64,000 nucleotides of DNA from a virus (lineage: Duplodnaviria; Heunggongvirae; Uroviricota; Caudoviricetes): IMG/VR virus record IMGVR_UViG_3300027754_000043. The stretch is one strand, 5' to 3'. This document shows, in pieces, positions 35,949 to 46,960 of the stretch (position 1 is the first letter of the stretch; each line of letters begins with the position of its first letter). The position numbers were made by a program, and so were the translations under genes. Under the pieces are notes generated by a model. It made no database searches. It was not told the DNA's origin and worked only from the letters and a program-made list of their open reading frames with translations.

Positions 35949-37199
35949 TTAAAATTTAAAGAATGAATTGAATTTATTTGCATCGGTTGTAGAAATACTA
36001 TCTCCACCGAATTTCTTATATGTTTTTTTGTATGTTGAATACACGTGCATTGCATTGTCTGGATCTGCGAACATATCATGTAATGATACAATAACATTGA
36101 ATAATTCTGCTGGAATTGCTGTTTCTAACAATTCAACATGACTATCTACAATCTTATCAACATCTTTAGCCATTTGACAATATAAATGCGTATTGTGAAC
36201 TACCATACGTGGCATACCTTCTTGTGAATATCGATCTAACCCGCTTTGTGTCTGTCCACCTAAATATTCATATGTAAAATCTCTACATGCAGGACAATCT
36301 ATACTACAAGGGACATGTTTTGTTTTATCAATTGATACAGTGTCTTTACCTTGTTTAATATGAGTTTTTCTTCTATACTCGGCATTCTTAGGGAAATACA
36401 ATTCCGTAAAAGTTTGCGTTTTATAGTTAGTCGAATGCAAATAAGTACCATATACTGGATATTGACCTGGAGATGAAGAATCTGTAGATAATTGTACACG
36501 TCCATCTGTCAAATCATTCAATAACTTTTGCAATGTCGATAAAATGAAGAAATCTGATATTTTAGATATACCTAATAAGTGAATAAATTGTACATGGGGT
36601 TTTTCAAACTCTCTTTCTTGAAGCATAAGTGCCACAACATACATAAAATCGACTAAGCGTTTAGGACCACCAATACACCAACCATTAAATGCGAAGTCTT
36701 TGAATTTGTGATACCAAATATTGTATTCTTCACTATAAGTACCCTGAATCACATTTAAAAACTTAGTTTTACCTGATTGATGTGTTTCAAACCATTTAAA
36801 ATTGTCAAATGAAATATCCATCGAATCTTGGAATCGATTCTCAAATGTAACACGCGGAGGAATATCTAAATTTGCTGCAACATCTGAATTGGCTTCTAAC
36901 CAATGAAAGATCTTTTCACGAATGGTAGTATCCCATTTAAGTGCTCCTGTGGCAATCTGGAATCCTCCAGAATCTCCAAATACTAATACATCATCATCCA
37001 ACCCAATTTGTTGACGGAAATCCATTTTCTTGTAATGGTGACCTGCTGTAATCAAGAAATATGGATGTCTCCATTCTTCTGGGTATTCCTTTCCAAAGAA
37101 TCTCATAGTAGTGTCATCACTAAACTTCGAGTCCTTCTTAAAGGCAGATACCATTGATCCTGCAGATAATGATGGATAGTATATAAACTTTTTACTCAT
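35949..37199 (-). CDS. DpdA-like DNA-guanine transglycosylase (TGT/queuine tRNA-ribosyltransferase family)
   Basis: VLVFGDSGGFQIATG matches the catalytic TGT motif (L-x-D-S-G-G-F/Y-Q). A C-terminal zinc motif C-x3-C-x2-C is present (CSIDCPAC). Confidence 0.6.
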   Translation of the reverse strand: MSKKFIYYPSLSAGSMVSAFKKDSKFSDDTTMRFFGKEYPEEWRHPYFLITAGHHYKKMDFRQQIGLDDDVLVFGDSGGFQIATGALKWDTTIREKIFHWLEANSDVAANLDIPPRVTFENRFQDSMDISFDNFKWFETHQSGKTKFLNVIQGTYSEEYNIWYHKFKDFAFNGWCIGGPKRLVDFMYVVALMLQEREFEKPHVQFIHLLGISKISDFFILSTLQKLLNDLTDGRVQLSTDSSSPGQYPVYGTYLHSTNYKTQTFTELYFPKNAEYRRKTHIKQGKDTVSIDKTKHVPCSIDCPACRDFTYEYLGGQTQSGLDRYSQEGMPRMVVHNTHLYCQMAKDVDKIVDSHVELLETAIPAELFNVIVSLHDMFADPDNAMHVYSTYKKTYKKFGGDSISTTDANKFNSFFKF

Positions 37200-37202
37200 T
37201 AT

Positions 37203-38387
37203 TTACCTTTGTTTGTTAAAATAATTATTAATTAGATGTTGACAATATTCTTTTTCATGCCATACATTGAGTTCTTCTGATATACCATTAACGATAATGT
37301 ATGCTTCAATTCTTCTACCTAAATCAGCCGTATCAGCAAAGTCATAGTATCTATTATAGTCATTGTTGCATATTCGGTCTAATACCTGAACAGCATCAAC
37401 AACTGAAAATGGAGAATACATACGATTCGTTGGAATAAATTCTGGGAATGATCTAAAATTTGGAAATACTACATCACAACCGAAACAAGTAGATTCTAAT
37501 ACCGTCCAAGAAACATAATCTTGAAGTGAACTATTAAATTGAATTCTAGCAGTTGCTAATTCGTGATAATATTCTTCTTTAGACAAATTACTTAACAATT
37601 TAAATCTAGGCTGATTTCTTGCTAATTCTTCCATTGCCTCAATTACACCTGGTACCATTGATTTAAATGATTTACCTGATGTGGTTACGTGCCAAACATA
37701 TGATGGATTATCATTTAAAAATGATTCAGCAACTTTCATCATGAAGAATGGATTCTTTTCTTTATCAAATCGACTCGAATACACAATTTTATTTTCTCGC
37801 GGACTAAGTGCACTATATTCAGGATATTTTGCTAAAGTTAATTCTTTATGCAATGGCAAAGAAACAACATGTATAGGTGCCTCAAATCCAGCTTCTCGCA
37901 ATTGGTCTCTGTGTATTGTGGATCCAACAAAGATACCGGTCATTCGTTTATCTAAACCTAATTCAAATCCACGCATCCATTTACGCATAGGCCATGTAAA
38001 ATCATACTCATCTACACTTTGTGCGTGTAGCATTGCATAAATCTCAACTTTAATGCCATATAGATCCAATGCATACAATATTGATTCGATACCCGGGTGC
38101 CAATAATCTTGTAAGAATATAACATCGCCATTAGACACCTCATCGCGATTCAACATATCTAAAAAATTGCTACATTGACTCATAGCAAATTTACCTCTAC
38201 CTACCGCATCTAATACAGCACCAACTTTAATTTGTTGATCAGGGTCAAATTCACCTTTAACATCAATAAATTTAATTGCACCTGTTTTCTCATATGGCGC
38301 GAAGGTAGCCGGCATCCATTCTTTACTTAATTGATAAGTATAACGTGCCTTAAGTGGTTCCAAACCGAAATAAAAGATTTTCTTCAT
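37203..38387 (-). CDS. GT-B fold transferase (glycosyltransferase or CDP-alcohol phosphotransferase-like)
   Basis: IVYSSRFDKEKNPFFMMKV matches the GT-B RxxxEKG donor-binding motif. A loose pattern resemblance to T4 beta-glucosyltransferase was seen by eye. Confidence 0.4.
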   Translation of the reverse strand: MKKIFYFGLEPLKARYTYQLSKEWMPATFAPYEKTGAIKFIDVKGEFDPDQQIKVGAVLDAVGRGKFAMSQCSNFLDMLNRDEVSNGDVIFLQDYWHPGIESILYALDLYGIKVEIYAMLHAQSVDEYDFTWPMRKWMRGFELGLDKRMTGIFVGSTIHRDQLREAGFEAPIHVVSLPLHKELTLAKYPEYSALSPRENKIVYSSRFDKEKNPFFMMKVAESFLNDNPSYVWHVTTSGKSFKSMVPGVIEAMEELARNQPRFKLLSNLSKEEYYHELATARIQFNSSLQDYVSWTVLESTCFGCDVVFPNFRSFPEFIPTNRMYSPFSVVDAVQVLDRICNNDYNRYYDFADTADLGRRIEAYIIVNGISEELNVWHEKEYCQHLINNYFNKQR

Positions 38388-38422
38388 AACCTATAATATA
38401 AAATAATATTCAATGATCCAAC

Positions 38423-38770
38423 CTATCTTTCGATAATTGCACCATTTTCCCAATCTTCCCAAACTTCCACTTTATATAATTCTGGGAATTGACCCAACAA
38501 ATATTCTCCAATTGATTCACACGACATCGGACCAAACTCTAGACATTCAATATCTCTTTCAAAATTCAATTGTAGATTTCTTTTTATTTCTCGATTCAAT
38601 AAAATAAACTCTTTGTCTCGGTCCGTATGTGTTACTGTGGCATAACAACGGAATCCGAACATATGACGATGTCTATCTGATAGGAATGCTACTTCTGGAA
38701 ATATGTCTTTTGCTGCAGGCCAATTGTGAAACCCTTCTAAACTAAATGTTACTACTACGCTGTATTTCAT
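38423..38770 (-). CDS. T-fold protein, QueD/PTPS-like paralog
   Basis: FSLEGFHNWP...RHRHMFGF aligns by eye to QueD FTFEAAHRLP...CGRLHGHSF. This is a second T-fold gene in addition to the one at 45780. Confidence 0.35.
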   Translation of the reverse strand: MKYSVVVTFSLEGFHNWPAAKDIFPEVAFLSDRHRHMFGFRCYATVTHTDRDKEFILLNREIKRNLQLNFERDIECLEFGPMSCESIGEYLLGQFPELYKVEVWEDWENGAIIER

Positions 38771-45571: not shown

Positions 45572-45574
45572 AAT

Positions 45575-45817
45575 TTAGTTATTTGGTTTAACCGTTATTG
45601 TATATTTTCTAGTATAACTAGAATCCTCGTTTTTTACTAACACACCTAATACCGGTATAAATTCGTTAGAATCAAACATAATTGGTGTAACAACAACATT
45701 TAAGTTGGAGTTTTCTAAAGCAACTTTAATTTGTTGAGTTATTGCCATCTCATTAACTTCTACTTTCAATTGATCTTTACTATTCTTCATATATACTTGA
45801 GTTGTTATCGTTTTCAA
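45575..45817 (-). CDS. hypothetical protein
   Basis: 80-aa ORF. Confidence 0.35.
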   Translation of the reverse strand: MKTITTQVYMKNSKDQLKVEVNEMAITQQIKVALENSNLNVVVTPIMFDSNEFIPVLGVLVKNEDSSYTRKYTITVKPNN

Positions 45818-46256
45818 AACACTCTACTTTGATGCACTTACATCTACCAGCATCTGTTTTTGCTAAAACTTCATTGAATTTATCAAAAACTAATTTAGCA
45901 TTACTTTCAGCACCCATTTTATCTAAAAAATGTACTTTACAAATACCTTCCATTGCCATAGTTTCAAATAAATCTCTATATGGATCATCTGATTGAATTA
46001 ATGTAGTATGATCCCACATATGATCCATCCAATCCTTTAAACCATTGCCTTTAGGTGGTGTTTTAAATCCACCGTAGTCAACAATCCAATTCATATCATC
46101 TAATTGGTTGTCAATATCTGGTTCTACCGATGCAAACCAAACTTTGAATTTTAAAGCATATCCATGTAACAACTCGCAATGTGAATGTGATGCTTTCCAT
46201 TGACGAATTGCCACTGAATAATTTTCAAATAATTTTGTTGAAATATAACGTGCCAT
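45780..46256 (-). CDS. QueD-like 6-carboxy-5,6,7,8-tetrahydropterin synthase (T-fold)
   Basis: SVAIRQW...SHCELLHGYALKF matches the QueD Cys-x5-HGH zinc/catalytic motif. Confidence 0.6.
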   Translation of the reverse strand: MARYISTKLFENYSVAIRQWKASHSHCELLHGYALKFKVWFASVEPDIDNQLDDMNWIVDYGGFKTPPKGNGLKDWMDHMWDHTTLIQSDDPYRDLFETMAMEGICKVHFLDKMGAESNAKLVFDKFNEVLAKTDAGRCKCIKVECFENDNNSSIYEE

Positions 46257-46960
46257 TAGTTATTATAACCTTTTACAAATTGATAAAATTCTGATCTTGC
46301 ATTACCATCTTCAAGGAAAGCTCCTGATAGTTTTGCTGTTTTCATAGATGCACCACGATGCTTAACACCTCTACATGATACACAGTTATGAGTTGCCTCA
46401 ATCATTACAGCCACTCCTTGATTATCAGTGATAAGTTGATGAACTGCGTGTTGAATTGCAACTGTTAATTGTTCTTGAATTGCACCTCTTCTGCCGAAAT
46501 TTTCTACTACCCGATTCAATTTACTTAAACCGACAACTTGACCATTTTCTGCTGGAATATATGCAATATGAACTAATCCTTCGATAGTCTGATGATGATG
46601 TGAACACATTGATGTTAATGGAATACCTCCCTCAAATACTATACCGTCATACCCGTCACTAGGAAATGATGTAATGTCTGACATTGGCTCATATCGACCT
46701 TTCCACAAATCATTAACATATGCCTTTGCTACACGTTTAGGTGTATTATCTGAATTCGGATCTTGTTCCCATTCTACCCCTAATGCACGAAGAAATTCAC
46801 CATAATGAAATGCAGCTGATTCAATTATTTCTTGTTTTTCTAGATCAGTTAATTTAGCATCTGGTCCATAAATTGCTTGTTTAGATGCTAATTGAGTTGA
46901 GATACCATTTGCGAAACCTGACTTAACAAGTTCTAAGTTTTTTCTTTGTTCTTTTGTCAT
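46256..46960 (-). CDS. folE: GTP cyclohydrolase I
   Basis: SMCSHHHQ active-site Cys/His cluster and GLSKLNRVVENFGRRGAIQEQLT, characteristic of FolE. Confidence 0.8.
   Translation of the reverse strand: MTKEQRKNLELVKSGFANGISTQLASKQAIYGPDAKLTDLEKQEIIESAAFHYGEFLRALGVEWEQDPNSDNTPKRVAKAYVNDLWKGRYEPMSDITSFPSDGYDGIVFEGGIPLTSMCSHHHQTIEGLVHIAYIPAENGQVVGLSKLNRVVENFGRRGAIQEQLTVAIQHAVHQLITDNQGVAVMIEATHNCVSCRGVKHRGASMKTAKLSGAFLEDGNARSEFYQFVKGYNN

Follow-up and report, generated by a model that had tools for sequence, protein, structure and literature searches.

A DpdL-type 7-deazaguanine locus with a linked glycosyltransferase, predicted in an uncultured phage

Replacement of guanine by 7-deazaguanine is among the few purine disguises known in phages, and it blocks many restriction enzymes. 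In Cellulophaga phage phiST, every G in the DNA is replaced by 2'-deoxy-7-deazaguanosine (dDG) and the corresponding nucleoside of 7-carboxy-7-deazaguanine (dCDG) is absent; the phage encodes FolE, QueD, QueE, DpdL and the transglycosylase DpdA3, without QueC (PMC10516641). Cui et al. (2023, PMC10516641) named the phiST protein CGPG_00067 DpdL and proposed that it decarboxylates 7-carboxy-7-deazaguanine (CDG) to 7-deazaguanine (DG). They described an LxxxHRHxF signature that replaces the CxxxHGH of QueD, and phages carrying DpdL were reported to be without QueC. In the same study, DpdA2 of Vibrio phage VH7D inserted preQ1 and preQ0, and CDG in trace amounts, into DNA in E. coli. The DpdL route, chemically documented in one phage group, is widespread, as more than 590 viral contigs carry DpdL. 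Here we analyzed a 64-kb stretch (the window) of the 168,221-bp source contig of IMG/VR virus record IMGVR_UViG_3300027754_000043, which comes from an uncultured phage and carries a DpdL locus; the gene absences given below hold for this window.

We consider it probable that the window encodes a phiST-type pathway in which the free base DG is made and then put into phage DNA. The lack of a QueC gene, which had puzzled the initial annotation of this DNA, is explained by a known enzyme, DpdL. What is new is the architecture, in which an unclassified DpdA clade is locked to a GT4-type glycosyltransferase. On this basis, the DNA is predicted to carry plain dDG or else a deazaguanine not described before, decorated with a sugar.

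Biosynthetic genes shared with phiST

The genes of the window all lie on the minus strand, and its G+C content is ~32% over the 64 kb. The four open reading frames (ORFs) that the initial annotation had singled out as FolE, QueD, QueE-like and TGT-like (tRNA-guanine transglycosylase) are real, and its proposal of a 7-deazaguanine DNA-modification gene set, with a TGT-superfamily transglycosylase among replication genes, held up on closer analysis. It had missed four further genes, for DpdL (38423-38770), a glycosyltransferase (37203-38387), a nucleotidyltransferase (38742-39161) and a phosphoribosyltransferase (43144-43665). The genes on which the argument turns are the following.

46256..46960, minus strand: FolE, GTP cyclohydrolase I (GTP to dihydroneopterin triphosphate); Pfam GTP_cyclohydroI PF01227, E 1.2e-44; NCBIfam folE, E 1e-42
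45780..46256, minus strand: QueD, 6-carboxytetrahydropterin synthase; Pfam PTPS, E 2.9e-10, over the gathering score
44428..45240, minus strand: QueE, radical-SAM CDG synthase; Radical_SAM, E 2.2e-5; top NCBIfam match QueE TIGR03365, E 1.7e-14, under the curated cut-off
38423..38770, minus strand: DpdL, QueD paralogue and proposed CDG decarboxylase (CDG to DG); homology to phiST DpdL, signature, PHROG 17812 at E 7e-26
37203..38387, minus strand: GT-B/GT4-type glycosyltransferase between DpdL and the transglycosylase; AlphaFold2 model, PDB folds, motifs
35949..37199, minus strand: TGT-fold transglycosylase, DpdA of an unclassified clade shared with Pseudomonas phage PA5oct gp168 and distantly related to DpdA2; fold search, invariant Asp, hhalign

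FolE, QueE and QueD were each closest to their phiST counterparts, at 67%, 61% and 39% identity, respectively. QueD is a T-fold protein whose motif takes the variant form CxxxHGY, as it does in the aligned proteins of phiST and Acidovorax phage ACP17. Since relatives of QueE are 257 aa long, its true start probably lies 12-14 codons inside the ORF, at 45198-45204.

The 115-aa DpdL is 44% identical to CGPG_00067 (pairwise E 8e-27). It had no Pfam match, and a 5-sequence DpdL profile had no match in the PDB. The signature LxxxHRHxF is present in the window as LSDRHRHMF and is kept in all 80 DpdL homologues that we took from IMG/VR. The loci of these 80 homologues make up the sample for the counts below; their neighbours were classed with profiles, and some counts were limited to 10 kb around DpdL.

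Consistent with the initial annotation, which had seen no QueC, tblastn searches of the 64-kb window with phage QueC, QueF, Gat and YhhQ queries returned nothing better than E 0.2, and Gat-QueC was likewise not found there. The sole SGGxDS-like string in the window (SGGADS, ~7407) was rejected as a QueC PP-loop, since it sits at the C-terminus of an AAA_5/MoxR ATPase. In the viral sample, neither QueC nor QueF occurred within 10 kb of DpdL (0/80 loci). Given a DpdL gene in the window, it is to be expected that QueC is missing, and the inserted base is predicted to be DG, whose nucleoside dDG was described in 2023, rather than CDG.

We infer the chemical steps of the pathway, its DNA target and the acceptor of the glycosyltransferase from gene identities, folds, motifs and co-occurrence, using homology together with the phiST and VH7D data. 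FolE would convert GTP to dihydroneopterin triphosphate (H2NTP), from which QueD would make 6-carboxytetrahydropterin (CPH4) and the radical-SAM enzyme QueE would then produce CDG. DpdL, a QueD paralogue without the catalytic cysteine, would strip off the carboxyl group to give DG, so that QueC would not be needed. The TGT-fold protein encoded at 35949-37199 would swap guanine for the deazapurine in double-stranded phage DNA after replication, and the modified DNA would be shielded from restriction enzymes that make contacts at guanine N7. The GT4-type glycosyltransferase might add a sugar to deazaguanine, as the free base or in DNA, and an enzyme like hypoxanthine-guanine phosphoribosyltransferase (HGPRT) would most likely return the freed guanine via GMP to GTP, which FolE would use.

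A transglycosylase of an unclassified DpdA clade

The gene for the 416-aa transglycosylase lies between that for family-B DNA polymerase (PolB) and those for clamp, clamp loader and dUTPase. A profile built from the transglycosylase alignment, searched against PDB sequences, reached TGT at no better than E ~1, so structure prediction was needed. The AlphaFold model, made from a 49-sequence alignment, had a predicted local distance difference test score (pLDDT) of 74 and a predicted template modelling score (pTM) of 0.81. Its top 23 PDB matches, which were all those with E <1e-3, were TGT-family structures at E ~1e-7, and the next fold came at E >1e-3. These matches included human and mouse QTRT1, the Zymomonas and Thermotoga TGTs, the archaeosine TGT (ArcTGT) and the DNA preQ0 insertase DpdA (7ui4). 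The fold search, alongside a sub-threshold Pfam TGT match, thus bears out the assignment of this protein to the TGT family; its close homologues mostly carry a precomputed PF01702 match.

Two residues, D76 in the DSGGFQ motif and D240, are invariant in the 49 sequences. Judged by position rather than by superposition, D76 would be the general acid/base and D240 the nucleophile, at the barrel strand end. The initial annotation had relied on this motif and on a C-terminal Cys zinc site. The string C298-x3-C302-x2-C305...H335 is present in the window protein, occurs only in close relatives (at least 82% identity) and falls in a low-pLDDT stretch of the model. Neither the PA5oct branch nor the clade members with 49% and 38% identity have the Cys triad; confined as the cysteines are to a narrow lineage, the argument from a zinc site is weak.

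We compared the clade of the window protein with the described DpdA subfamilies by hhalign. It aligned with 100% probability to the PA5oct clade and with 95-98% probability (E 1e-8 to 1e-12) to the clade of ACP17 gp123 and its homologue in Synechococcus phage BUCT-ZZ01. The latter clade is DpdA2, as VH7D DpdA2 (CF80_gp012), which is located between FolE and QueF/QueC, matches its profile at E 5e-89. The probability dropped to 30-66% against the VH7D protein alone, and BLAST gave no match. Relative to phiST DpdA3 (259 aa), the window transglycosylase showed no BLASTP similarity and an hhalign probability of ~5%, and the DpdA3 profile matched nothing in the window; DpdA3 scored <30% against every DpdA2-like clade. 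DpdA1 (phage 9g gp03) gave <2% and no profile match. The window protein is best described, from these profile comparisons, as a DpdA of an unclassified clade that would be sister to DpdA2. The literature that we searched reports no DpdA5 or DpdA6 subfamily.

The clade includes PA5oct gp168, Sinorhizobium phage Phosso gp440 and Vibrio phage 2.275.O gp468, the last of which adjoins QueF, YhhQ, QueC, Gat and FolE. Relatives of the transglycosylase lie in deazaguanine clusters in PA5oct, ACP17, BUCT-ZZ01 and Vibrio phage 2.275.O. The DpdA2 proteins of VH7D, Vibrio phage nt-1, ACP17 and BUCT-ZZ01 share with the window protein a TGT-fold core with DSGGLQ or DSGGFQ, although the relationship is invisible to BLAST. 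ACP17 and BUCT-ZZ01 also share the arrangement of DpdL with a glycosyltransferase, whereas the DpdA2 of VH7D and nt-1 works with QueC and QueF (preQ1/preQ0) and has no adjacent glycosyltransferase or DpdL.

The clade is abundant in metagenomes: 962 homologues were counted at E <1e-3, on Tara Oceans and freshwater contigs that reach 170 kb. None of 50,697 phage records matched the 11-kb region by megablast, and searches with the end genes to extend past the window returned contigs of 1-3 kb only.

Two distant members of the TGT-like superclade (profile E 1e-7 to 1e-12) were seen in Pseudomonas phage vB_PpuM-Aura (L006, 7857-9227) and Vibrio phage GR7B (L091, 4704-6320). Both lie upstream of a sigma-factor gene and have no deazaguanine biosynthesis genes nearby.

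A linked glycosyltransferase and two DpdL architectures

The protein encoded between DpdL and the transglycosylase was modelled with AlphaFold2 at a pLDDT of 81 and a pTM of 0.83. Its best PDB folds were BshA, MshA, TreT, trehalose-6-P synthase and glycogen synthase (E ~1e-10), all of the retaining GT4 type, and its Pfam Glycos_transf_1 match lay under the gathering score (19.5 vs 26.4). A search of BFVD folds returned ACP17 gp124, one further homologue and generic glycosyltransferases only. The R206/K211 phosphate-binding pair and the (E/D)290-x7-E298 motif are kept in 61 homologues, and this conservation of catalytic motifs leads us to count the enzyme as catalytically intact. Also kept in the 61 homologues are a family-specific N-terminal E10...R15-Y16-T17 and, in the acceptor domain, several acidic and aromatic positions.

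Homologues of this glycosyltransferase adjoin DpdL in BUCT-ZZ01, ACP17, the PA5oct-like phages and Phosso, and lie 1.5-3 kb from it in Xanthomonas phages X1 and BUDD and Burkholderia phage BCSR5. The hosts of the pair thus span unrelated phage groups, namely the T4-like ACP17 and BUCT-ZZ01, the jumbo phages PA5oct and Phosso, and the lineage of the window. Over the 80 loci, the glycosyltransferase was distributed as follows.

DpdA2-like transglycosylase (either clade) near DpdL: glycosyltransferase present in 47 loci, absent from 2 (both of which end within ~2 kb of DpdL)
DpdA3 near DpdL: glycosyltransferase present in 0 loci, absent from 22
No recognised transglycosylase near DpdL: glycosyltransferase present in 9 loci, absent from 0

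In the subset of 41 loci whose flanks reached at least 6 kb to either side of DpdL, 29 had a DpdA2-like transglycosylase with the glycosyltransferase, 8 had DpdA3 without it, and 4 had the glycosyltransferase without a recognised transglycosylase. The split held across ~17 DpdL lineages defined at 60% identity (~10 and ~7), and the glycosyltransferase lay at a median distance of 238 bp from DpdL. DpdL loci therefore fall into two mutually exclusive architectures, one with DpdA3 and the other with a DpdA2-like transglycosylase and the glycosyltransferase. The second, which often includes a purine phosphoribosyltransferase as well, is found in cultured phages, including the therapy-relevant PA5oct group. 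The insertion module of the window departs from that of phiST, although its FolE, QueE and DpdL resemble their phiST counterparts; its transglycosylase and glycosyltransferase thus appear to move as a unit that is exchanged against DpdA3.

Among the cultured counterparts of the window is the gp162-gp168 block of PA5oct, with a transglycosylase of the same clade (gp168, pairwise E 7e-20), the glycosyltransferase (gp167), DpdL (gp166), a phosphoribosyltransferase (gp163) and QueE (gp162). The two differ in that gp168 is 540 aa long with large insertions and lacks the Cys triad, and identities are only 23-30%. PA5oct virion DNA resists several restriction enzymes with G-containing sites (PMC12191111), no chemical identity being reported for its modification.

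In the phiST cluster, kinase-like and MazG-like genes stand in place of the glycosyltransferase of the window. The same was seen in other DpdA3-type loci (L017, L019, L025 and L028), where an AAA_18 nucleoside/nucleotide-kinase-like gene, often with a MazG-like gene, occupies the position; in phiST (L001, 9320-9799) this gene is CGPG_00066, which was reported absent from other deazaguanine phages (Cui et al., PMC10516641). A second, unrelated GT1/GT4-like glycosyltransferase (447 aa) lies between FolE and DpdA2 in BUCT-ZZ01 (L003, 9010-10353), with relatives in loci L065, L076 and L077.

By analogy with antibiotic biosynthesis, the linked glycosyltransferase may decorate deazaguanine, its putative acceptor, with a sugar, either as the free base or in DNA. 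The pathway to huimycin includes HuiG, a glycosyltransferase that attaches N-acetylglucosamine to a 7-deazaguanine derivative at its 2-amino group (PMC7439116), and the family of huimycin biosynthetic gene clusters has PF13439 glycosyltransferases (bioRxiv 10.64898/2026.04.15.718813). Like the window, the huimycin and tubercidin clusters of actinomycetes have a FolE/QueD/QueE core followed by a glycosyltransferase (PF13439) or by a PF00156 phosphoribosyltransferase and a decarboxylase. They differ in that their products are small-molecule antibiotics rather than modified DNA, and the tubercidin decarboxylase is UbiD-type, unlike the T-fold DpdL; HuiG is likened here to the phage enzyme by role and not by sequence. 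As in huimycin, the sugar might sit on the exocyclic N2.

It is possible, if doubtful, that phages with this architecture of DpdL, GT4-type glycosyltransferase and DpdA2-like transglycosylase carry glycosylated or glycosyltransferase-dependent 7-deazaguanine in their DNA. Such a reading would cover the abundant freshwater and marine lineage of the window, the PA5oct-like jumbo phages, ACP17 and BUCT-ZZ01. If true, the transglycosylase and glycosyltransferase would form a two-enzyme insertion-and-decoration module that is an alternative to DpdA3, and their product would be the first case of a DNA purine hypermodified with a sugar. Through this conserved linked enzyme, the "unusual derivative" of CDG that the initial annotation allowed for retains a place, although that annotation had not noticed the gene. 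Omission of the neighbouring glycosyltransferase may also explain why reconstitution with DpdL and the ACP17 DpdA failed. We found no report of glycosylated deazaguanine in DNA or of follow-up work on DpdL in the literature, and Cui et al. name neither the glycosyltransferase nor PA5oct (PMC10516641). Such modification also bears on how environmental viral DNA is sequenced and on its handling with restriction enzymes. A role of the glycosyltransferase on hydroxymethyl-pyrimidines was considered but gained no support, as Pfam searches of nearly all window ORFs of at least 100 aa revealed no thymidylate-synthase/hydroxymethylase homologue.

Several points weigh against the DG pathway or its extension to a sugar-bearing base. 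The decarboxylase activity of DpdL has only been proposed, and E. coli expressing DpdL with the DpdA of phiST or ACP17 made no dDG (PMC10516641). The transglycosylase has no PHROG family, and its match to Pfam TGT PF01702 (E 2.6e-5) scored 23.9 bits against a gathering score of 26.3. The window covers 64 of ~168 kb, so QueC could still lie elsewhere in the genome. As a base without a hydroxyl group, DG offers no evident site for attaching a sugar. The association between the glycosyltransferase and DpdA2-like transglycosylases has a Fisher p of 2e-16, which overstates independence because the loci are phylogenetically related. Finally, an unrelated-looking glycan island elsewhere in the window (17860-29781, minus strand) holds ~7 other glycosyltransferases, so the glycosyltransferases of this phage need not act on DNA.

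Alternative routes and neighbouring genes

A real possibility, though one short of probable, is that the DNA carries plain dDG as in phiST. The glycosyltransferase would then act elsewhere, on host or virion glycans, on protein or on another DNA base, as would the following gene beside it, and their linkage to the transglycosylase would reflect the shared ancestry of a gene block.

38742..39161, minus strand: small RfaE domain II/TagD-like cytidylyl/adenylyltransferase; Pfam CTP_transf_like, E 9.9e-10; NCBIfam rfaE_dom_II, E 7.8e-13; PHROG 7878, E 8e-30

That phiST makes dDG without any glycosyltransferase fits this explanation, as do the lack of an obvious O-acceptor on DG and the many other glycosyltransferases of the phage. 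The nucleotidyltransferase is also dispensable in close relatives: its gene, which overlaps the DpdL start, is present in L009 and L011 and absent in L008 and L010. It occurs in 13/56 glycosyltransferase-type and 2/22 DpdA3-type loci, a difference that is not significant, so we rejected it as a core component and regard it as accessory; it is possible that it makes an activated donor. What plain dDG accounts for less well is that the glycosyltransferase stays beside DpdL across unrelated phage groups, never occurs with DpdA3, and travels with the transglycosylase while FolE, QueE and DpdL remain phiST-like.

Three further genes of the cluster, two of them with no assigned function, are listed here; the first bears on a different route to modified DNA.

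43144..43665, minus strand: HGPRT-like purine phosphoribosyltransferase; Pfam Pribosyltran, E 1.6e-24; NCBIfam HGPRTase TIGR01203, E 1.4e-37
45209..45571, minus strand: conserved 120-aa protein between QueD and QueE, function not assigned; conserved position
39158..39598, minus strand: 146-aa protein upstream of the DpdL block, function not assigned; conservation

The phosphoribosyltransferase scored 129 bits with TIGR01203 (cut-off 150) and has the phosphoribosyl pyrophosphate (PRPP) motif VYIVDDICDSGAT. Its family, which includes PA5oct gp163 and the BUCT-ZZ01 "XGPRT", lies within 10 kb of DpdL in 31/80 viral loci and in both architectures; Cui et al. do not discuss it (PMC10516641). Most simply, the enzyme would recycle the guanine freed by base exchange; alternatively, it could make a 7-deazapurine nucleotide.

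On this second role, the modification would arise at the nucleotide level: the phosphoribosyltransferase would join CDG or DG to PRPP, as happens in the making of tubercidin, the resulting 7-deaza-GMP would pass through the phage ribonucleotide reductase to 7-deaza-dGTP, and the phage polymerase would incorporate it, leaving the TGT-like protein an auxiliary or different function. We regard this route as unlikely. 7-Deaza-dGTP is a good polymerase substrate, the phosphoribosyltransferase recurs near DpdL, and NrdA and NrdB, PolB and dUTPase flank the cluster. Tubercidin clusters without QueC, moreover, pair a PF00156 phosphoribosyltransferase with a CDG decarboxylase (bioRxiv 10.64898/2026.04.15.718813). 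Yet the phosphoribosyltransferase resembles an ordinary HGPRT, close to the TIGR01203 cut-off, and keeps the PRPP-loop Asp that normally acts on purine N7; it is missing from more than half of the loci, while DpdL is accompanied, wherever the locus has sufficient flanks, by the glycosyltransferase or a transglycosylase of DpdA type. Nor did the window yield a recognisable dGTP-specific hydrolase.

The suggestion of the initial annotation that CDG itself is inserted, giving dCDG, or that the base, with QueC encoded beyond the window, is preQ0 or derived from it, now seems quite improbable. VH7D DpdA2 does insert CDG, at very low efficiency (PMC10516641), and part of the contig extends beyond the window. 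The suggestion is at odds with a DpdL gene whose signature is intact, with the lack of QueC and QueF in all 80 DpdL loci, and with phiST, whose DNA is free of dCDG. That the TGT-like enzyme modifies host or phage tRNA instead of DNA, as its closest solved structures, tRNA-guanine transglycosylases, might suggest, is very improbable given the absence of tRNA genes from the window, the placement of its gene between the clamp, clamp loader and dUTPase genes and PolB, the action of the related DpdA2 on DNA, the restriction resistance of PA5oct DNA and the presence of a bacterial DNA insertase, DpdA (7ui4), among the fold matches.

Neither of the two proteins of unassigned function had a Pfam or PHROG match. 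Homologues of the 120-aa protein occupy the equivalent position in L011 and in the DpdA3-type loci L019, L025 and L028. The 146-aa protein is conserved in the close relatives L008-L011 and adjoins the glycosyltransferase in L018. Between PolB and the DpdL block, ORFs 39700-40110 (136 aa) and 40192-40581 (129 aa) share a near-identical N-terminus, M(K/N)KNILAENMRRFNTKNLNEE, and then diverge; they look like a tandem paralogue pair.

A GroES gene (43864-44166; Cpn10, E 9e-15) lies between QueE and the phosphoribosyltransferase, beside thioredoxin (44183-44428), and a GroEL-type chaperonin (2764-4380; Cpn60, E 1.4e-79) is encoded ~40 kb from it. Besides the 839-aa family-B polymerase (40625-43144), the window encodes a 441-aa protein with a family-A DNA polymerase domain (56988-58313, E 1.2e-10).

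The glycan island holds five GT2-type and two GT4-like glycosyltransferases, one of which matches PF20706 ("GT4 in conflict systems"), together with a UDP-N-acetylglucosamine 2-epimerase (E 5e-98) and an NAD-dependent sugar epimerase/dehydratase. The G+C content falls to 0.27-0.29 at 20-26 kb of the window, and a SLOG/YspA-like protein (29829-30233) is encoded at the edge of the island. Auxiliary genes unusual for a phage include those for the MoxR/CbbQ-type AAA_5 ATPase (7276-8427), a ClpS adaptor homologue (12050-12364, E 1.8e-16) and a protein with a cREC_REC "cyclic-phosphate processing receiver" domain (636-1124, E 6e-19).

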